A DNA stretch of 53,538 nt from an uncultured Bacteroidales bacterium (GCA_946613135.1 CAMOFI010000001.1:1-53538), one strand, 5' to 3'. Counted from the stretch's first letter, positions 16,062 to 25,361 are shown. Translations and numbers: made by a program. The notes: generated by a model not told the origin, from the letters alone.

Positions 16062-18839
16062 TCAAACGTTCCGTTTCAAGACTTTATCCTTGAAATCGCG
16101 TCCTCGTTCTTCAAAGTTTTTGTAATGGTCATAGCTGCTTGCCGCTGGCGAAAGCAGGCAGATTTTTCCCTTGGCAGTATACTGCGAAGCAAACACAACG
16201 GCATCGCCCATCGAGTAATCAGGCTCAAAATGCATCATCATCCTTTTCTTGCCGGCCGCCTCGGCATCGATATCCGACATGCAGTCGACAATCTGTTTGC
16301 CTGCCGTTCCGAAAAGAACAAGATTCCGCACTTGACATCCCTTATCGCTTCTCAACAGGTACTGCGCCAATGGATTATAGTCTATGCCTCTGCTATAGCC
16401 GCCAAGAATCAATGTGTCAACATCCTTCAAGGCCTCAATGGCAGCAATCGTAGCTTGGGGTATTGTGCTTATTGAATCATTATAGTATACAACACCATCA
16501 ACAACAGAAACGAACTCAAGACGGTGTTCCAATCCCTTGAACGATGCCACCGATTCGAGAAAATCGTTGACACTGATGCCAATACTCTCGGAGACAAGCC
16601 ATGCTACATATATATTCGAAAGGTTGTGGTCGCCAACTAAGGGCAAAGAGACTCCTTCAAAAGGCTTGAAATCTTTTGCCTCTTGGAGGCTGTAAGGATG
16701 AATGTGCGACACAATACGACCATCCGACTCTACCACTTTGGTTCTGAGGTCGTTGTTGTCGCCACAATAGAAAAACACACCATTATTATCCTGATTTACG
16801 GCTATCTGCATTTTTGCATTGCAGTAGTCCGCATAGTCATGATAATGGTCAAGATGTTCCTGAAACAGGTTGAGAAGCACCGCCACGTGTGGCGCCCGAT
16901 GGATGTTCTGCAACTGGTGACACGATAGTTCGGCTACGACAATACAGGATTCATCCATCTTTCCAAGTATATCAAAGAAAGGTATCCCTATATTTCCTGC
17001 AAGAATTACATCCTTGCCATGTAGCGACTTGGACAATACATCATATATCAGACTTGTTGTAGTGCTCTTGCCTTTGGTGCCAGTGACACCGATGGTGATA
17101 TCACCAAACACACGGAGGAAAAGGTCTGTTTGAGATGTAATCTTCGTCATGTCGCAGTGACCTTCGAAAACAAAATCCGGTATACCTGGCGATTTGATAA
17201 TCAAGTCGTAGTCGTTACTTTTAAGGAGCGACAGTATTTCGTCGTTGTTATTGGCCACATCGAACGGACGGCCTGGAAACATCTTGCTGAGCAAAGAGGC
17301 ACTACTTCTCCCCTCCCTTCCATAGCCGGCAATAAGAATGCGCTTGCGAGCCAAGAGGTTGAAAAGCCGGTTGTACCGGAAGAACTGCTCAACACTTCTC
17401 GACGGAACCTCTTTGGCAGAAACAGCGTCGTTCACTGTGTCCGCACACAGCGCCTTATAAAGAATAGACCAATCTCGCTTGGGCAGATTATGGTTTGTCG
17501 AGACACTGTCGAGAGAGATATCTACAGGAAGTGGACTATAGTTTTGTAGCAATGCCGGCAACTTGTCGGTATACCATTTTGCTATCGTGATAGCCAGGGC
17601 ATTGTTGACCTCACTGACAGTGCCTACACATTCGAACGGCTTGGTCTCGGCCACGCCTACGAGTTGGTCGAACTCGTGCTTCATTGAGATGTCGTCGAGC
17701 ATGTCCTTGCCGAAAATCATCGCAAGGCGATGAGGTTCTATAAAGGGTGAAAGAATAATGTAGGCAAACAGACATTTGGCGCAGTGACCGCACCACACAT
17801 CCTGCTTGCTGCCAACGTTGCAGCTCCTGAAAACAGGGTGGTACTTGTCGAACCTGGCAAAAAGCATGGCAATCTGCAGTTCGCATAGAGGACGCAGAAA
17901 ACTGTAATAATTGAATTCCGGCGATATATACTCTCTTACATATTCCCTGAAGTCGTTCTCAAACTCGAGACTTTTCGAGTACTGATGGTTTACGTTAGTT
18001 CCAAGCACTGTACTCTCGTTGGCACTGTTCTCGTTAGAAAGAGCTATGTCTGGACGGGATGCCGTCATTGCCGAAGTAAGCAACGAATAGAACGCCAACA
18101 TGGCACTGAAAGGGGTATGACCATTGAGGGCTCCCGACTTGTTCTCCTGCAGCAGTCGCGGGTCGATAGTGCGGTTGATGACGATGACATCGTCCATCGA
18201 AAAACCAGCAGCTTCGACACACCCTATGGTGGCGCCGCGAGGATTCATGATAAGAGGCAATGGAAGTTTCTGTTTCCCGTTGTCGCCTATTCGGCCCGAA
18301 AGCAGTTCAAGGGTTACTACAGAGTCTTTCCCTCCACCTATAGGAACTATATGACTGTCTGTATCAAGGGTTGGACGAAAGATGTGCTGTATGAATTTAG
18401 GTGCAAAGGCAGACGACGGACTTTGTATCTGCATAAAGTCATCAACGCTTGCTTCGATTCCATTAGTATAGAAAAACTCGCCCAAACCATTATAGTATAG
18501 TTTTTTCCAGAAAGAAATCTGACGTTCTTCCAGTTTATATGGACATATCGTGACCAAAGGAGGACAATAGCACTTCCAATAGCTCACCAATTCAATCATT
18601 CCAATGTTAAACACCAACGCGTCGAGTGTCTGGGGCGAGAGATGGTCTGTTGTGAGGAATCGGCGCGAAGGCACTACAGCGCTCGGCTCAAAAACCACAT
18701 CCCTGCCAGGTTGCGAAGCGACAAGGCGAAAACAAAAAGTGATGTGCAGCCCATCTGGCTGCACATCATATTTGAAACTTTCGTAGATGAACTCTTTGAA
18801 ATTCCGTCTAAAAGTGCTATAGTCGTTCTGTCTTGTCAT
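16062..18839 (-). CDS. fusion protein: N-terminal QueC-like PP-loop/4-Cys domain + C-terminal MurD-type UDP-MurNAc-L-Ala--glutamate ligase
   Basis: 925-aa continuous ORF. N-domain (about aa 1-495, nt 17352-18839) carries GGGKDS (nt 18321-18338) and C-x9-C-x2-C-x2-C (nt 17772-17822). C-domain (about aa 497-925) has the Rossmann stretch ILIAGYGREG, the Mur ligase P-loop GVTGTKGKSTT (nt 17061-17090), GDHNLSNI and GLEHRLEFV. Confidence 0.85.
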   Translation of the reverse strand: MTRQNDYSTFRRNFKEFIYESFKYDVQPDGLHITFCFRLVASQPGRDVVFEPSAVVPSRRFLTTDHLSPQTLDALVFNIGMIELVSYWKCYCPPLVTICPYKLEERQISFWKKLYYNGLGEFFYTNGIEASVDDFMQIQSPSSAFAPKFIQHIFRPTLDTDSHIVPIGGGKDSVVTLELLSGRIGDNGKQKLPLPLIMNPRGATIGCVEAAGFSMDDVIVINRTIDPRLLQENKSGALNGHTPFSAMLAFYSLLTSAMTASRPDIALSNENSANESTVLGTNVNHQYSKSLEFENDFREYVREYISPEFNYYSFLRPLCELQIAMLFARFDKYHPVFRSCNVGSKQDVWCGHCAKCLFAYIILSPFIEPHRLAMIFGKDMLDDISMKHEFDQLVGVAETKPFECVGTVSEVNNALAITIAKWYTDKLPALLQNYSPLPVDISLDSVSTNHNLPKRDWSILYKALCADTVNDAVSAKEVPSRSVEQFFRYNRLFNLLARKRILIAGYGREGRSSASLLSKMFPGRPFDVANNNDEILSLLKSNDYDLIIKSPGIPDFVFEGHCDMTKITSQTDLFLRVFGDITIGVTGTKGKSTTTSLIYDVLSKSLHGKDVILAGNIGIPFFDILGKMDESCIVVAELSCHQLQNIHRAPHVAVLLNLFQEHLDHYHDYADYCNAKMQIAVNQDNNGVFFYCGDNNDLRTKVVESDGRIVSHIHPYSLQEAKDFKPFEGVSLPLVGDHNLSNIYVAWLVSESIGISVNDFLESVASFKGLEHRLEFVSVVDGVVYYNDSISTIPQATIAAIEALKDVDTLILGGYSRGIDYNPLAQYLLRSDKGCQVRNLVLFGTAGKQIVDCMSDIDAEAAGKKRMMMHFEPDYSMGDAVVFASQYTAKGKICLLSPAASSYDHYKNFEERGRDFKDKVLKRNV

Positions 18840-18840
18840 A

Positions 18841-20574
18841 TCAATTCAGCTTGAACGACACCTTCCCGATTTCATATCCATTGGCATAGAGCGTCACCCA
18901 ATAGAGACCGGGGGCCAAGTCTACGTTATCGGCTTTCTTCCATAGCATGGTGATATTGCGTCCATAGCCTGTGAACTCTATTTCTTGTTTCACAGTGTAT
19001 TGCATCTGGACTCCATTCATGTCGAAGCTGTAATTCTCGGGATTGCCGTTGCATACAACACGGTTGGAGGCATTGGCTATACGGGCATATAGGGCAACCG
19101 TTCCCGGGTCTATAACATTATTGTCAAGCAACTTGCAGTCGAGTCTGATAACCTTGGTCTGCGACGCCTTTGAAGTGGGTTTGACTACATTGCCTATCTT
19201 TACACTTTTGCCAGGTGTGACTTTGATGTCCGAAGTAACCAGCACAGAAGCAAGTTTGACCTTCTGTTGCAGGCGCTCGTTCTCGGCAATAAGATCGGCA
19301 CTGGAAGCCACTTTCTCTTTCAGTGTGGCGTTCTCGTTCTTGAGCTGTTCATTCTCTGCTTTGAGGCGTGCAATCTCAGCCTCATAGTTGCTGCACATAG
19401 CCTGGAGTTCGGCTATTTTTGCATTGACGCTGCCTGCTGTCGATTTGCTGCCCGACTGGCTTGCAGCCTTTTCGGCAGCCTTACGGGCTTCAGCAAGGGC
19501 TGCATCCTTGCGCTGTATTTCCTGACGCAGCTGCTCTATTTCAGCACGCTGGCTCGCAATTGTTGCATTAAGGCTCTCCACAGAGCTTGTGTTCTCTGAA
19601 CTTGAACTCTTGAGTGCTTCAAGCTGTGCTGTCAGACTGCTTATTTTTCCAATAAGAATTTCTTTGTCGCTATTGCATTTGGCGATCTGCTCTTCAAGAG
19701 CCTTGGTAGCTTTCTCGCTCGACTTGTCGGCCTGTTGTGACGCAATCTTTTTGTTGGCATCAGCCAATTGCGACTGGGCATCTGACAAGTCTTTCTGGAA
19801 TTTTGCATTCTGTTTTTGGCAGTCCGACAGTTGTGACGAAAGTGTAGATAGCTGACGTTTTGCATCGGCCAGTTCTGCACTTGTTTCGCTTCCCGACTTT
19901 GCCAAGTCGCCGCGCAGCATTTTAATCTCGTTGTTGAGAGACTCTATCTGGCGGTTATATGCGGTGGCCTGGGTTTGCGAAGCATCGAGCTCGCCACTCA
20001 ACTGGGATATACGGCGCTCGTATCCGTCGCGAAGTGCATCACAGTCCTTGGCTCCGCTGCGAAGAGTTGCAATCTCGTTTTCCGACTCTTTCAGCTCTTT
20101 TTTCAGCTGTGCTATTTGTGCTTCCTGGGCTTTTACCTGTCGCTGCATCTGCTCAGCCTTGCCTTCTTTCAGGTTGCCATTATTGACGATGTTTTCCTGT
20201 CTGTCAAGCTCTTTCTGCAGGTTTCTGATAGTAGACTCTTTCTCTTTAAGCTCCTTTTGCAGGCGAGCGATCTTGGCATTGTCCACATTAGCCGGAGCTG
20301 AATTCTGCTTCTTCTGGTTAAGCTGATTGATCAGCTGTTGGATTTCTGCGGCCTGGGCATTGATCGCACTGTCGCGCGAAGCCATCTGCCCCTCGAAACC
20401 AGCATTTTCAATTTTGACCTTTTCGTATCGTTCCATTGTCGCGTCAAGTTGTTTTTGCAACTCGGCGACCATCTCGTCGTTATCATTCGTTCCATTGCAC
20501 GATTGAAAAGCCATAGCTACCGACACGGCAACAAAACCAAAGGCGACTATTCGTTTAAAGCTATTAATTACCAT
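18841..20574 (-). CDS. long coiled-coil lipoprotein with C-terminal beta-rich domain
   Basis: 577 aa. Signal peptide plus lipobox (AMAFQSC). About 400 aa of Q/E/K/L/A-rich heptad-like sequence. Non-coil C-terminal domain of about 140 aa. Its TGA stop is separated by 1 nt from the ATG of the downstream fusion gene. Confidence 0.8.
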   Translation of the reverse strand: MVINSFKRIVAFGFVAVSVAMAFQSCNGTNDNDEMVAELQKQLDATMERYEKVKIENAGFEGQMASRDSAINAQAAEIQQLINQLNQKKQNSAPANVDNAKIARLQKELKEKESTIRNLQKELDRQENIVNNGNLKEGKAEQMQRQVKAQEAQIAQLKKELKESENEIATLRSGAKDCDALRDGYERRISQLSGELDASQTQATAYNRQIESLNNEIKMLRGDLAKSGSETSAELADAKRQLSTLSSQLSDCQKQNAKFQKDLSDAQSQLADANKKIASQQADKSSEKATKALEEQIAKCNSDKEILIGKISSLTAQLEALKSSSSENTSSVESLNATIASQRAEIEQLRQEIQRKDAALAEARKAAEKAASQSGSKSTAGSVNAKIAELQAMCSNYEAEIARLKAENEQLKNENATLKEKVASSADLIAENERLQQKVKLASVLVTSDIKVTPGKSVKIGNVVKPTSKASQTKVIRLDCKLLDNNVIDPGTVALYARIANASNRVVCNGNPENYSFDMNGVQMQYTVKQEIEFTGYGRNITMLWKKADNVDLAPGLYWVTLYANGYEIGKVSFKLN

Positions 20575-20686: not shown

Positions 20687-21619
20687 ATGTCGAATCATCA
20701 AATAATCAACAAAATCATCAAAATAAACAATATATCAACACTTTACACCACACTAATCTTGTTGATAACATTTTGCGTTGCTTCTCCGCAAGCCATGTCG
20801 CAAAACGGCTGTAACATGTCAAAAAATACAAATAACGGACTTGACGACACATTGGGGTACAAGACTACGTCGCTCATTGTCGGCAGTGGTTTGGGGTATG
20901 GCACCTTCCGCGATATGGGAACAGCTCCCTTCAGCTTCAATGGCATAATGCTGCAACCTCATATAGGAATAGAACTAAGTGGACTGCGGAAATGGCACAC
21001 TAAAGTAGAGTCATTCACCGCTTTCGGTATATTTGAAGACGCCATTAAACCGATAATGAATTTTGGCTCGTTCGACGTAAACAACACATTCAGAGTCAAC
21101 GTCATGAGATGTGTGGCAAAAAGAAACCCTGTCTTTCTCTTTGTCGGTTTAGGTATGGCAAATTATCTTGACGTGACCGTCAATCCCGACTATGAAAATG
21201 CAGCAGCAGGAATCAGCGAGTTCTTCGGCCCTGAAATATCTGCATGTGTGCTGCTCGACCTATCCGCAAAACATGCCACAAACGTTCTGAAATTCAAAAA
21301 AGGGGTACATGCCGAAATGGGACTTACACCATTTGCCGCTGTGCTGAGACCCGGATATGCGTACATAGACAACTACACAGCATCTCATCCTGTACTCGAT
21401 GCCTTGTTTGACAATTTCCAATGGCACATGAAACCTGTTGCAGGAATATACACGAATATCGGCTTTGACATTATCAACGGTCTTGGAAGCCGTATATCAC
21501 TGTCGTACATTTGGTCATACCATTCGTCAGGCAACAACGACATCTGGCGCTACGACCATGCTTCGCACATGCTATTTATTGATTTTATAATTCCTCTCAA
21601 AAACAAAAGTGTGAAATGA
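20687..21619 (+). CDS. hypothetical exported protein, possible outer-membrane beta-barrel
   Basis: 310 aa. Hydrophobic signal-like segment LYTTLILLITFCVASPQAMSQ. Gly/aromatic-rich alternating sequence. The stop overlaps the next gene's start (ATGA). No family recognised. Confidence 0.6.
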   Translation: MSNHQIINKIIKINNISTLYTTLILLITFCVASPQAMSQNGCNMSKNTNNGLDDTLGYKTTSLIVGSGLGYGTFRDMGTAPFSFNGIMLQPHIGIELSGLRKWHTKVESFTAFGIFEDAIKPIMNFGSFDVNNTFRVNVMRCVAKRNPVFLFVGLGMANYLDVTVNPDYENAAAGISEFFGPEISACVLLDLSAKHATNVLKFKKGVHAEMGLTPFAAVLRPGYAYIDNYTASHPVLDALFDNFQWHMKPVAGIYTNIGFDIINGLGSRISLSYIWSYHSSGNNDIWRYDHASHMLFIDFIIPLKNKSVK

Positions 21620-22647
21620 ACAAGAGACTTGCAATACCAATATGTTTTTTTCTGTCGGCATTTTTCTCAGGATGCGAAAAAATACTCATGTCTGAAGATG
21701 CCGACCCATCGCCTGTCGCAGTATTCGAGTATTTATGGAAGCAGGTCGACGAACGCTATTCTCTTTTCGACGTCAAGCAGGTGGACTGGGACAAGATGCA
21801 CGACAGTCTGCGACCACAGGTATACAACACAATGTCGGACGACAGTCTTTTTGCGGTATTGAGAAAAATGCTAAACAGCCTTGACGACGGGCATGTAAAC
21901 CTTTGGGGCAATAACGATGTAGCCAGCAGCGAAGCAATATTCCTACAGAAATACGGCAAATCAAATTTCGACATAAACACTGTGGCCCTCTCCTACCTGC
22001 GTGCCGACTACCACACCACCGGCGGAATGGCTTACAACACTATCGACTCTGGACGTGTATTGTATATCCGTTACAGTTCCTTCAGCAGCTCTGCATCCCC
22101 AAGCCAACTGAGAACCATACTGAAACGATATCCGGACATCGACGGAATCGTTTTCGACATCAGACAAAACGGTGGTGGCGAAATCCAGAATGAATGGAAC
22201 ATCATGTCCATCCTTCCAAGCCAGGAGCAAATGCTTTACTCCACACAACTCAAGAACGGGAAATCCCATTTCGCTTTTTCAGAGCCCGTAACCGTATATG
22301 CTCCGCAAAACAAAGACTCTGACATTTTTCACAAACCTTTTATCCTGCTAACAGACAGAGGATGTTACAGCGCCGCTTCAAGTTTTGCCTTATGCCTTAA
22401 AAGCTTTAAAAATGTCACTGTCGTCGGCGACACTACCGCTGGAGGACTCGGCATTCCGGCCGGAGGCGCTCTGCCAAACGGCTGGCACTACCGCTTTGGC
22501 GTAAGCCGCATATTGGCACCTGACGGAATCAACTACGAAAACGGTGTCCCTCCCGACCGCACAATCATGCTCGACCCCTCCGCATTAGCCAACAGGCGCG
22601 ACAACATCATTGATTCTGCATGCAGCATAATAAGAGAATTAAAGTAA
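21616..22647 (+). CDS. S41 family peptidase lipoprotein
   Basis: 343 aa. Lipobox FFSGC. S41 motifs DIRQNGGGE, TDRGCYSAASSFA and VVGDTTAGG. Confidence 0.8.
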   Translation: MNKRLAIPICFFLSAFFSGCEKILMSEDADPSPVAVFEYLWKQVDERYSLFDVKQVDWDKMHDSLRPQVYNTMSDDSLFAVLRKMLNSLDDGHVNLWGNNDVASSEAIFLQKYGKSNFDINTVALSYLRADYHTTGGMAYNTIDSGRVLYIRYSSFSSSASPSQLRTILKRYPDIDGIVFDIRQNGGGEIQNEWNIMSILPSQEQMLYSTQLKNGKSHFAFSEPVTVYAPQNKDSDIFHKPFILLTDRGCYSAASSFALCLKSFKNVTVVGDTTAGGLGIPAGGALPNGWHYRFGVSRILAPDGINYENGVPPDRTIMLDPSALANRRDNIIDSACSIIRELK

Positions 22648-22676: not shown

Positions 22677-25361
22677 ATGAATCTTTCCGACTTTCTGATA
22701 CGAGCAAGCTATCCGAACTATTTCATGGTGAAAAAATATGCCGACATGGGGCGGGAAATATTCAATCGCAACATCGAGGACAAAGACAACCAACTGAAAG
22801 GCAACAAACCAGGCACGGTGATCTATAACCTCGATGACGGAAGCCGTCACGAATTTCCTCCGAGATGGTATGACATGTATTATTTGCTGCGGCAACGAGC
22901 CGACAACCGCAAACGCTACCTTGAGTTGCTTCTGAGAGAACGTTATGGCGAACAGCTTTGCGACAGTAACGGCAACGCTCATCCTGCAACAAACAAGATT
23001 CCAGAATTAGAGACTATCAGGAACAATTTCAGAGAAACATGTATACAATATGTTGCCGACAATCCACTGGTAAACAGCCCCGACTTGATAACAACACTCG
23101 TGGAAGGCGATTTCAGCGACGAACAAATAAGCTACAAGGGGCGTATGCTCCTTGACCTCACACGCAACTGCTATCCTGTTCCCGACTTCTGCATCCTTAC
23201 CTCCAACGCTTTTCAGAAAGAAGACCAACTCGAGCAACTCCTCGAACAAGCCATTGCCAACCTTGAAGTGATGACTGCTTATAAATTAGGCAGTTCCGAC
23301 AACCCGCTTGTTTTTGCCATACGATGTGCTATGCCACAATACATACCCGGACTGATGCCGACACTGCTCAATATCGGCGTCACTCGCGATGCCTACAAAG
23401 GTCTTCTCAGACATCACGCACGTTCCATGGCCAATCGTGTATACCTGAGCACCTTACACACCATCAGCGAGATGCTCTCGATCGAGAAAAAATACGACCG
23501 AAATGACATAGAACTCACAACTGACGAGCAAGAGGCACGCATCAAGACCATGGAAAAATCCATTATCAGCGCACGGGAAGATGGAGAACGCCTTCTTTGC
23601 GACGCCCATTACCAAGCCCTGAAACTTGTCGAATATGTACGAGCATTCTATATAGACAATCAAGACCTAATCCTGACCTTCATGCAAGGCAAACAAGCCT
23701 ACCCCTCGCTTATACTGCAGCGTATGGTATGGACTATAGGCAACGAGGAATCCTATCCCGGCGTACTCTACAGCCATCACAGCCGCACAGGACAAGGACG
23801 GCAAGTGGAAAGCTACCGTAACATTTTTGGCGAGGAAATCATGACTGGCGACGTGACTTCTATTGACATTTCGTATACTGACAGAAACGAAATAAAAACG
23901 GAATATCCTGCAGTATTTCACTTCGACCCGCTGCTCGATTCGCTCGAAGAGAAACTCAAATCGCCTGTAACAATAGAATTTGCCGTCGAGACACGGCCTC
24001 AAAAGACGAGTCTCTTCGCTGTCCTTCAGCTGAACATGTCAGAAATGACAGGTCGGGCCGCTCTTATTTCATCAATCGACTTGCTGAACCGCGGAATGAT
24101 TGAGGAACACGATGTCACCTCACTAATAAAACCGTACCATCTACGCCAGATTGTCAGCAACTCAATAGACGATCGTTCCATGTCTCATCTCGACTTTTTC
24201 GGACGCGGGCTCAGCGTACTGCCTCGCACAGCAATTTCGGCGACACTCTGTTTCAGTGCACAAAAAGCACAGGAACTCAAGAAAAACGGAGTGGCCGTAT
24301 GTCTCTGCCAAGAACGCTTTGTGCCCGAGGACACCATCACCCTTGGCGAAATCGACGCCATACTTAGCATGACACCTGCCGCCATCCATGTCGTCACCGC
24401 ATGTCGCGGTTACGGCATTCCGGCACTGATGAATCTGCAAAATTATGGCATACACAAAGTCGGCAACAAGATAGTCAACAACAATGGATTGGAAATCTAC
24501 GAGAACGATCCTGTGACCATCTCAAGCAAACATCAGACCATATACAAGGGCATTGCCGACTTCAAGCCTGCACGATTCACAAAATACATAAATGGAGAAA
24601 AAGTCAAACTGGAACCTGACGAGGTGAAGTTTTTCGAGGACATGAAACAAGCCTATTCCCGCTACCAGGATATTGTCACTTCCGACAAAGCCTCATTTAT
24701 TACCGACATCAACAAACTGGCAAGACTGATACGCTGCGACCTGCAAGACAAGCCAGAAACAGCACGCAACATTGTCAATGCATGGTACAGCGGCAATGCA
24801 GACCTGTACATCAAACAGGTTCTCGAAAGCAAGATGGGCGACCACCAAGACCAGTCAAGAGTATTCAACCTGCTTTCGAACGACAGGAAAGTCGACTTTT
24901 TCAAACGAGCCTCAAAACAGTGCATCGACAATGGCATGAACGGCTTGAAAGCAGGTGCTTTCATGCTTGGAAGATTTGTCGCACGTCCACTGCCTACTGC
25001 CATTTGGAACCTACTGAGCGACCAGACAGTGGCTTTTCTGCTCAACGAATATGTCCTATACGAGAAATACCTCCACGTACTCGAGGAGGTTGGAGAGATA
25101 AGGCTGGCACGAGCTCACTCGAAAATCGAGACTGAAGGTATCGACAATATGATAATAAACAACTTCAACCTATATACTTTCGTCACCCTCCTGGATTCAA
25201 GCCACGACTGGGACAATGTCTGCAAAGAACTGGAGCAATTGGACCATCAAGACAACACCCATCTGCTTGTCGAGAAACTGAGCCATCCCATAGACGAAAT
25301 ATTCGACACGAAAAAGTCATGGGTCGCCTATGAGATAGAGAACTACAGGAAAATCCAATAG
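22677..25361 (+). CDS. pyruvate,phosphate-dikinase-like protein (ATP-grasp + phosphohistidine swivel domain) with non-canonical N- and C-terminal regions
   Basis: The ORF is open from ATG 22620, but that start overlaps the S41 gene by 28 nt, so I prefer the ATG at 22677 (MNLSDFL). PPDK-like blocks: YKGRMLLDLTRNCYPVPDF, SDNPLVFAIRCAMPQYIPGLMPTLLNIG, FGEEIMTG, IEFAV...LQLN. Swivel motif TPAAIHVVTACRGYGIP has its His codon at 24387-24389. The last roughly 260 aa show none of the PEP/pyruvate TIM-barrel motifs. Confidence 0.8.
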   Translation: MNLSDFLIRASYPNYFMVKKYADMGREIFNRNIEDKDNQLKGNKPGTVIYNLDDGSRHEFPPRWYDMYYLLRQRADNRKRYLELLLRERYGEQLCDSNGNAHPATNKIPELETIRNNFRETCIQYVADNPLVNSPDLITTLVEGDFSDEQISYKGRMLLDLTRNCYPVPDFCILTSNAFQKEDQLEQLLEQAIANLEVMTAYKLGSSDNPLVFAIRCAMPQYIPGLMPTLLNIGVTRDAYKGLLRHHARSMANRVYLSTLHTISEMLSIEKKYDRNDIELTTDEQEARIKTMEKSIISAREDGERLLCDAHYQALKLVEYVRAFYIDNQDLILTFMQGKQAYPSLILQRMVWTIGNEESYPGVLYSHHSRTGQGRQVESYRNIFGEEIMTGDVTSIDISYTDRNEIKTEYPAVFHFDPLLDSLEEKLKSPVTIEFAVETRPQKTSLFAVLQLNMSEMTGRAALISSIDLLNRGMIEEHDVTSLIKPYHLRQIVSNSIDDRSMSHLDFFGRGLSVLPRTAISATLCFSAQKAQELKKNGVAVCLCQERFVPEDTITLGEIDAILSMTPAAIHVVTACRGYGIPALMNLQNYGIHKVGNKIVNNNGLEIYENDPVTISSKHQTIYKGIADFKPARFTKYINGEKVKLEPDEVKFFEDMKQAYSRYQDIVTSDKASFITDINKLARLIRCDLQDKPETARNIVNAWYSGNADLYIKQVLESKMGDHQDQSRVFNLLSNDRKVDFFKRASKQCIDNGMNGLKAGAFMLGRFVARPLPTAIWNLLSDQTVAFLLNEYVLYEKYLHVLEEVGEIRLARAHSKIETEGIDNMIINNFNLYTFVTLLDSSHDWDNVCKELEQLDHQDNTHLLVEKLSHPIDEIFDTKKSWVAYEIENYRKIQ

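Follow-up and report, generated by a model that had tools for sequence, protein, structure and literature searches.

What does a protein do that shares the nucleotide-binding and phosphohistidine domains of pyruvate,phosphate dikinase (PPDK) and carries something else where PPDK binds phosphoenolpyruvate (PEP) and pyruvate? The question is raised by a gene in a stretch of 53,538 nucleotides from an uncultured Bacteroidales bacterium (GCA_946613135.1 CAMOFI010000001.1:1-53538), here called the window (53.5 kb in full). On balance, we favour the reading that the product is an active swivelling-His phosphotransferase with a remodelled nucleotide site, in which the PEP/pyruvate TIM barrel was exchanged for a new helical acceptor domain, and that the enolase/PEP node offers the best lead to its substrate. 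By homology and its invariant catalytic residues, the protein probably moves phosphate to a second substrate, in agreement with an initial annotation made from the DNA alone, which had proposed, as one of two readings, a dikinase-type phosphotransferase and left its acceptor unnamed. The gene and the parts of its product are listed below, with the evidence for each.

22677..25361, + strand: target gene, coding for a PPDK-derived protein of 894 amino acids (aa) and ending in a TAG stop (list of open reading frames, codon check, more than 900 full-length homologues)
22677..23081, + strand: N-terminal domain, aa 1-135, three strands and helices (AlphaFold2, AF2; no relative in PDB or Pfam)
23082..24191, + strand: ATP-grasp nucleotide-binding domain and linker, aa 136-505, approximately PPDK residues 4-390 (TIGR01828 and 1DIK alignments)
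24192..24572, + strand: phosphohistidine swivel domain, aa 506-632, homologous to the PPDK central domain, residues 390-515 (1DIK alignment)
24387..24389, + strand: CAT codon of His571, the predicted phospho-carrier (aligned with PPDK His455; invariant in the family)
24573..25358, + strand: C-terminal all-alpha domain, aa 633-894, replacing the PEP/pyruvate TIM barrel (AF2; negative fold and profile searches)
24843..24845, + strand: codon of the invariant His723, part of a Gly-x-His motif that opens a predicted helix of the C-terminal domain (family alignments, AF2 model)

The reading frame from 22677 to 25361 is intact, with 894 codons followed by TAG and no interruption. With a rival start codon, the ATG at 22620, the frame would begin inside the S41 peptidase gene that precedes it. 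The homologues all begin at the position of the ATG at 22677 (MxxxFLIRASYPNYF), and we therefore place the start there; the initial annotation had chosen the same codon. The PPDK-like peptides that it had quoted were all found in the protein where it had placed them:

aa 153-179: peptide beginning YKGRML
aa 207-234: peptide beginning SDNPLVF
aa 382-391: NIFGEEIMTG
aa 431-438: VTIEFAVE
aa 448-453: AVLQLN
aa 564-584: peptide beginning SMTPAAIH

The initial annotation had suggested profile searches as a check on its domain reading. The NCBIfam model for PPDK, TIGR01828, matched aa 153-638 to its positions 20-516 of 865 (E 4.2e-34). The Pfam model PPDK_N (PF01326) remained below threshold (E 0.054), and neither PEP-utilizers nor PEP-utilizers_C matched the protein. 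Because the first of these Pfam models is sub-threshold and the second silent, public records name proteins of the family 'hypothetical'. A phmmer search against PDB sequences returned PPDK chains only, with neither PEP synthase nor rifampin phosphotransferase (RPH) among the matches. The best chain was that of Clostridium symbiosum (1DIK; E 9.4e-18, aa 154-632 on residues 22-515), and in its alignment His571 falls on the catalytic His455, as had been predicted for the swivel His. When canonical PPDK was searched against the window by tblastn, residues 22-525 aligned (E 1e-24) and nothing further. Judged from these alignments, the likeness of aa 153-638 to PPDK is homology and not chance.

The PEP/pyruvate TIM barrel is absent, and an unrelated helical domain of 262 aa stands in its place. 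None of the strings CRTEHMF, LDPPLHEF, NPMLG and GTNDL occurs in the protein, and Pfam PEP-utilizers_C (PF02896) matched neither the target nor any of 21 diverse family members. An alignment of the C-domain profile with a PPDK barrel profile by hhalign gave a probability of 0.14%. PPDK residues 521-875 had no tblastn match anywhere in the window, in any frame, or in 96 related loci. The AF2 model of aa 625-894, computed for the domain alone from a 49-sequence alignment, has 17 helices and zero strands (predicted local distance difference test score, pLDDT, 87; predicted template modelling score, pTM, 0.81). These results bear out the earlier description of a helical tail devoid of the PPDK C-terminal motifs. 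A barrel found by sensitive searching had been named as the observation that would overturn it, and the Pfam, hhalign, Foldseek and tblastn searches revealed none.

We also looked for relatives of the C-domain elsewhere. Foldseek searches gave no fold match in BFVD and, in the PDB, a best E of 0.2 with TM scores of at most 0.33; RPH was missing from the 50 best of these matches. When 21 diverse C-domains were combined into a profile, it found nothing credible among PDB sequences (one spurious PfEMP1 match, E 0.0025), and a Pfam scan of 21 family members left the domain unmatched. A profile search of 5.8 billion proteins recovered it in no other architecture and returned only fragments of the same family. 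The domain is always joined to the PPDK-like core, including in each half of P0140, a 1550-aa Spirochaetota protein described below.

The C-domain is a real and constrained domain. His723 was invariant in 49/49 sequences (set A2) and in 21/21 (set A4), and recurs in the second branch of the family and in both repeats of P0140; this second invariant His had escaped the initial annotation. It is residue 99 of the AF2 model and the first residue of helix 99-107. The pair Gly721-x-His723 is invariant across branches A and B and both halves of P0140. Glu649, His723, Glu791 and Tyr798 are invariant throughout the family, Asn701, Arg766 and Lys797 are conserved in most members, and further invariant or near-invariant residues are Trp703, Phe762, Gly765-Arg766, Trp777, Lys797-Tyr798 and Gly806-Glu807. 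From this pattern we infer that the polar residues may form a second active site served by the swivelling His571, in which His723 would either take part in catalysis or carry the phosphoryl group in its turn. That His723 acts as a relay is an idea only: neither an HPt four-helix bundle nor an HPr fold was among the Foldseek PDB matches (best E 0.2), and Pfam and PDB sequence searches gave no match for the domain.

The N-terminal domain, too, has no relatives among the sources searched. Modelled alone by AF2, the first 140 aa form three strands and four helices (pLDDT 90, pTM 0.83). The best Foldseek match in the PDB had an E of 0.7, phmmer found nothing below E 1 among PDB sequences, and Pfam was empty. 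The initial annotation had called for structure predictions of both terminal regions and a search for their neighbours; both models are confident and neither found a PDB fold match. Its unrelated extension thus stands, with a length of ~132-135 aa rather than the ~150 aa estimated. The domain is weakly conserved across the wider family and missing from P0140.

Is the nucleotide site still that of a dikinase? For an answer, 27 diverse members of the family, with identities down to 28%, were aligned with 31 PPDK-like representatives as controls. The equivalents of PPDK Lys22, Arg92, Gly101, Glu323 and Gln335 were invariant in the 27 family members and likewise invariant in the controls. In the target, these are K154 (codon 23136-23138), R216, G225, E434 and Q451, with H571 at the position of His455, which was His in 27/27 family members and in 30/31 controls. 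Three signature positions differed. At that of Asp321, the family has Thr, Met, Ser, Val, Leu or Ala (acidic in 0/27; acidic in 29/31 controls), and T432 (codon 23970-23972) stands there in the target. Arg337 is replaced by Asn in 24 and by Asp in three of the 27 members (Arg in 29/31 controls), the target residue being N453 (codon 24033-24035). The Thr-Ser that precedes the catalytic His (Thr/Ser in 28/31 controls, then Ser/Cys in 30/31) has become Ala/Pro followed by Ile, Val, Leu, Phe or Ala, with a one-residue deletion, in 27/27 members. The target accordingly reads P-A-A-I-H where PPDK has G-G-x-T-S-H, with the His itself aligned and invariant, and PAAIH571VVTACRGYGIPA does not vary throughout the Bacteroidales set. 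In addition, the position of Thr253 (Thr in 29/31 controls) holds Ser, Pro, Ala or Val in the family and Pro in the target.

The earlier domain reading (ATP-grasp and swivel domains kept, barrel gone, unrelated N-terminal extension) was therefore right as to domains; the ATP site, however, was not simply kept, given that Asp321 and Arg337 are replaced in 27/27 members. A recent survey verified PPDKs by K22, R92, D321, E323 and R337, a list taken from 1DIK (PMC13147460); of these, the target keeps K, R and E and lacks D321 and R337. In RPH, a Lys22 mutant is dead, an Arg117 mutant confers no rifampin resistance and forms no rifampin phosphate, Arg117 being needed for the second transfer, and the Mg ligand Glu297 is dispensable (PMC4844700). 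Because Glu297 is dispensable, losing one acidic ligand need not abolish activity. With its essential residues frozen and fixed replacements at the signature positions, the active site looks remodelled rather than dead. In ADP-forming ATP-grasp ligases, the Gln/Glu Mg ligand is classically followed by an Asn two residues further on. The change from Arg337 to Asn may leave ADP-forming, as opposed to AMP-forming, chemistry possible.

The family is large and evolves under constraint. The search of 5.8 billion proteins yielded more than 900 homologues. The 120 best that were listed are 63-85% identical to the target and nearly all ~880-900 aa long, and the few named ones are called 'hypothetical protein [Bacteroidales bacterium]'. 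Among GTDB species-representative genomes, 126 loci encode the family. The best 80 of these were examined, and all come from metagenome-assembled genomes (MAGs) of uncultured rumen or gut Bacteroidales/Bacteroidetes, one labelled 'bacterium P3' and one Candidatus Colimorpha. An exhaustive HMMER pass over 1.84 billion representatives gave 80 clusters with E < 1e-30, among them full-length relatives at 28-44% identity, and relatives reach other phyla; at 50% identity, the family falls into about 80 clusters. Canonical PPDKs followed only at E ~1e-20 and covered residues ~150-638 alone. A metagenome scan added more than 514 further loci from soils, sediments and wetlands. The distribution and neighbours of the family, which the initial annotation had proposed to map, can thus be tabulated from these sets.

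The target belongs to branch A. Members of branch B (~800-920 aa) share its sequence up to about residue 770 and have a different tail after it. P0140 consists of two complete tandem units of ATP-grasp, swivel-His and helical domains, both without the N-terminal domain. It is encoded at L086:5408-10060 in a Spirochaetota MAG (GCA_016934735.1), and Lys, carrier His and G-x-H are retained in both copies. Compared with its nearest orthologues, the target gene showed proportions of synonymous differences (pS) of 0.6-0.9, which is saturated, and of non-synonymous differences (pN) of 0.09-0.25. Against the nearest relative among the species genomes, a Bacteroidales MAG from sheep rectum (L009; target 85% identical, flanking genes 76-97%), pN was 0.087 in the C-domain and 0.088 in the ATP-grasp domain, that is, under equal constraint. 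Purifying selection is strong in all four domains.

How does the protein compare with known enzymes? It resembles PPDK (EC 2.7.9.1) in its homologous ATP-grasp and swivel domains (~24% identity over ~500 aa), in the position of the catalytic His, in the five other conserved residues and in total length. It differs by the extra 135-aa N-terminal domain, by the 262-aa helical domain in place of the TIM barrel with its R561, R617, E745 and D769, and by Asp321 to Thr, Arg337 to Asn, Thr253 to Pro and the altered, shortened His motif. With no barrel, two nucleotide-site residues gone, an altered motif and a whole-protein TIGR01828 score of 117.6 bits (curated cut-off 843.45), it is not a PPDK proper. 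With RPH, PEP synthase and glucan-water dikinase it shares the superfamily architecture of an ATP-grasp domain, a mobile His and a separate, lineage-specific third domain in one polypeptide, the acceptor role of its C-domain being suggested by that architecture. PEP synthase, RPH and glucan-water dikinase keep D-x-E and Q-x-R. The His domain of RPH lies at the C-terminus, after the rifampin-binding domain, whereas that of the target is central, and the C-domain resembles neither the rifampin-binding domain nor any PDB entry in sequence or fold. Three further proteins of 750-776 aa (P0223, P0241 and P0258) likewise combine PPDK ATP-grasp and swivel domains with a non-barrel C-terminal region of ~240 aa, but they keep GG-x-T-S/C-H, D-x-E and Q-x-R. 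Their tail (FGG..WA....T...YL, LFVDRVFDL.HN) is unrelated to the C-domain of the target (hhalign probability 0.4%), so replacement of the barrel happened more than once.

The lead to a substrate comes from gene neighbourhoods outside Bacteroidales. Enolase is the PEP-making enzyme. In six of six loci with a branch-B gene or P0140 (L086, L087, L088, L089/L090, L091 and L096), the gene adjoins one for a circularly permuted enolase-like protein of 700-1200 aa, with Enolase_C ahead of Enolase_N. It has kept every catalytic motif of enolase (eno model, 247 bits; cut-off 300). On its N-terminal side there is usually an M50-like membrane part with HExxH, joined to it in one polypeptide or, in some loci, encoded by a separate gene of ~310 aa. 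The permuted enolase-like genes are:

L108:5238-7781, - strand: permuted enolase-like gene
L086:2370-5297: permuted enolase-like gene
L087:10088-13693: permuted enolase-like gene
L088:2819-6412: permuted enolase-like gene
L089:3961-7506: permuted enolase-like gene
L091:13343-15487: permuted enolase-like gene
L096:900-3056: permuted enolase-like gene

This enolase-like family is widespread (Saganbacteria, WOR-1, Margulisbacteria, Planctomycetota, Verrucomicrobiota) and is named 'enolase' or 'hypothetical' in its sources. Among 80 metagenome loci of branch A, the M50 plus permuted-enolase protein was by far the commonest neighbour (30/80, and 17 of the 51 loci with enough downstream sequence). 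It lies convergently, ~37 bp downstream. Other neighbours outside Bacteroidales are phosphoglycerate-mutase-like, PGI, canonical enolase, PGK N-domain-like and GAPDH-like genes, the last without the active-site Cys, and a Bacteroidota-like relative, P0122, sits between GAPDH and CTP synthase. A PEP-node link is a family-level lead rather than a demonstrated property of the target gene. A literature search on the family and on the permuted enolase fusion returned no paper, only the general precedents RPH and VadK.

Two of these loci deserve separate description. In the Saganbacteria locus L087:5188-13693, a gene resembling only the N-domain of PGK (264 aa) is followed by the target-family gene, a GAPDH-like gene without the Cys of SCTTNC and then the giant permuted enolase-like gene, so that the locus resembles a row of divergent lower-glycolysis paralogues; L089 has in addition a phosphoglycerate-mutase-like gene, and L088 a PGI gene. 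At L096:4186-9658 (GCA_964405185.1), one genome has both branches back to back, branch A represented by P0132 (885 aa) and branch B by a gene for 890 aa, which is followed by a split membrane part and a permuted enolase-like gene.

Taken together, these data suggest the following course of reaction. The modified ATP-grasp domain would bind nucleotide, and His571 on the mobile central domain would be phosphorylated or pyrophosphorylated, as homology and residue conservation indicate. The central domain would then swivel to the C-terminal all-helical domain, which could offer a polar cluster of His723, Glu649, Asn701, Arg766, Glu791, Lys797 and Tyr798. There, the architecture of the protein suggests, the phosphoryl group may be exchanged, either directly with a second substrate or with His723 beforehand. 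The N-terminal domain may serve as an accessory module. The likeliest area for the substrate would be the enolase/PEP node of lower glycolysis, to which the family-level neighbourhoods point.

Several observations weigh against this reading. Foldseek searches of the PDB, PDB sequences and Pfam revealed no recognisable substrate-binding fold in the C-domain. Asp321, Arg337 and Thr-Ser are replaced family-wide, and the chemistry may differ or be lost; Pfam PPDK_N and PEP-utilizers also fall below threshold. In branch A, the enolase link occurs in only three of seven deep clusters of the target family (55% identity). The 80 Bacteroidales species and the window show no enolase-like or metabolic partner nearby, and their two conserved arrangements involve housekeeping genes.

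Could the protein instead be a regulatory autokinase? His571 would then autophosphorylate, the N- and C-terminal domains would bind proteins, and the phospho-state or a transfer would tune metabolic enzymes. With ATP and Mg, the barrel-less PPDK VadK (Rv1127c) autophosphorylates at the equivalent His, and it binds enzymes of the methylcitrate cycle (PMC13400623), a precedent that the initial annotation had missed. VadK and other truncated PPDKs (NF004531) have, like the target, lost the PPDK barrel but neither the ATP-grasp nor the His domain. The example of VadK shows that such derivatives can stay active, which also favours the preferred reading. Helical domains frequently serve to bind other proteins, the C-domain has no recognisable small-molecule fold, and the frequently adjoining enolase-type protein could be a protein partner. 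However, VadK (~490 aa) stops behind its His domain, has retained the canonical motifs and needs no further domains, whereas the target has 894 aa, two extra conserved domains and an altered nucleotide-site signature. Its score against NF004531, a model of the VadK type (~490-530 aa), was 78 bits with a cut-off of 456. The invariant His, Glu, Tyr and Arg of the C-domain look more like an active site than a docking surface, and no partner gene is conserved in the Bacteroidales loci. We consider a regulatory role of this kind possible but rather unlikely.

A further alternative is a non-canonical PEP/pyruvate dikinase, an analogue of PPDK or pyruvate kinase in which the PEP site would be supplied by the helical domain or in trans by an enolase-type barrel. 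Descent from PPDK would fit, as would the enolase-like genes with full catalytic motifs beside relatives in Saganbacteria, Spirochaetota, soil lineages and others, and the neighbouring phosphoglycerate-mutase-like, PGK-like, GAPDH-like, PGI and canonical enolase or GAPDH genes. Yet none of the PPDK PEP-site residues and motifs is found in the target, an enolase-like gene is absent from the window and from the surrounding 6 kb in the 80 Bacteroidales loci, and no Bacteroidales name appears among the best 120 enolase-like proteins listed, which is not proof of absence. We regard this alternative as improbable. The initial annotation had ruled out a pyruvate/PEP enzyme; the protein does lack the canonical PEP site, but the wider statement goes beyond the data, since relatives in several phyla adjoin enolase-type genes. 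A different site or a partner may still give the protein a PEP-node role.

In an extension of this idea, which we likewise think improbable, the target family and the membrane-anchored (M50-like) permuted enolases would form an unrecognised PEP-node module. The enolase barrel would make or hold PEP, which would be coupled to nucleotide phosphorylation via His571, possibly relayed by His723, and the remodelled ATP site may shift the reaction from AMP- to ADP-forming. The stand-alone version of rumen and gut Bacteroidales would, on this view, work alongside ordinary enolase as a PPDK or pyruvate kinase analogue. In the window and the 80 Bacteroidales loci there is neither a canonical PPDK nor an enolase, a finding that covers these loci only and is not proof of absence.

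The initial annotation had also considered a regulatory pseudo-enzyme. In such a protein, the PPDK-like core would be non-catalytic and have a structural or binding role only, which could explain why three superfamily signature positions (Asp321, Arg337 and Thr-Ser) are replaced in every member and why the Pfam domain models are sub-threshold. The invariance of the Lys, Arg, Gly, Glu, Gln and His equivalents over divergence down to 28% identity would be unexpected after loss of catalysis, however. The replacements are themselves fixed (Thr or small; Asn or Asp), as in a site remodelled and not abandoned, and purifying selection acts on all four domains. We therefore disfavour a pseudo-enzyme or scaffold as very unlikely. 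A degraded or mis-assembled canonical PPDK (frameshift, truncation or chimera), to which the length of 894 aa, near that of PPDK, might point, has a negligible chance of being correct and was rejected, since the same architecture occurs in more than 900 homologues and 126 loci, no barrel remnant exists in any frame, and the flanking domains are conserved, confidently folded by AF2 and under purifying selection.

Within the preferred reading of an active phosphotransferase, the Bacteroidales neighbourhood of the gene gives little guidance. Two co-directional genes lie upstream:

20687..22647, + strand: two genes, for a 310-aa signal-peptide protein and an S41 peptidase (Pfam/NCBIfam; co-directional with the target)

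The 310-aa protein (20687-21619, + strand) begins with a hydrophobic, signal-like segment and was matched by neither Pfam nor NCBIfam. Its gene runs 4 bp into that of the S41 peptidase, which a gap of 29 bp separates from the target; the three genes probably form one transcription unit in this lineage. The same order was found in ~40/80 species, including the window, with the 310-aa protein diverging fast (24-52% identity). In ~26/80 species, the order is RuvX, Def, a tetratricopeptide repeat (TPR) protein and the target. Because of this second arrangement, a functional link of the target to the S41 and 310-aa genes is doubtful. The downstream side is unconserved among the 80 loci.

The window itself is an ordinary chromosomal segment of a gut or rumen Bacteroidales, with genes for ValRS, AlaRS, FolE, Rpe, topoisomerase, PurA, Dxs and others. 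A PADLOC scan of the target protein gave no defence-system match. A scan for sigma-70 promoters and terminators remained at chance level, with a scan model that is ill-suited to Bacteroidota. Two other genes upstream were noted. The gene at 16062-18839 (- strand) encodes a fusion protein of 925 aa. Its aa 72-427 are MurL-like, with a match to the UDP-MurNAc-L-Ala-L-Glu epimerase model that stays below cut-off (E 4e-71), and its aa 501-920 correspond to MurD, with a score above cut-off (280 bits). This fusion gene is kept upstream of the target in 31/80 related species. Next to it, at 18841-20574 (- strand), a 577-aa protein is encoded that has a signal or anchor segment, ~400 aa of coiled coil and a C-terminal non-coil region of ~130 aa. 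It gave weak SMC/Rad50-type matches only and stands beside the MurL-MurD gene in 25/80 species.

Swivelling-His dikinases are the textbook case of long-range phosphoryl transfer, and to our knowledge every further acceptor domain has until now brought a new reaction with it (pyruvate, rifampin, starch, phenol). The family described here is widespread, strongly constrained and unannotated in a major gut lineage; it has two domains without relatives in PDB or Pfam and a nucleotide site that is systematically remodelled. Its recurrent pairing with permuted, membrane-anchored enolases is a concrete and testable lead. The substrate, if found, would add a reaction to the enzyme class and might reveal a new step in the central carbon and energy metabolism of uncultured rumen Bacteroidales.

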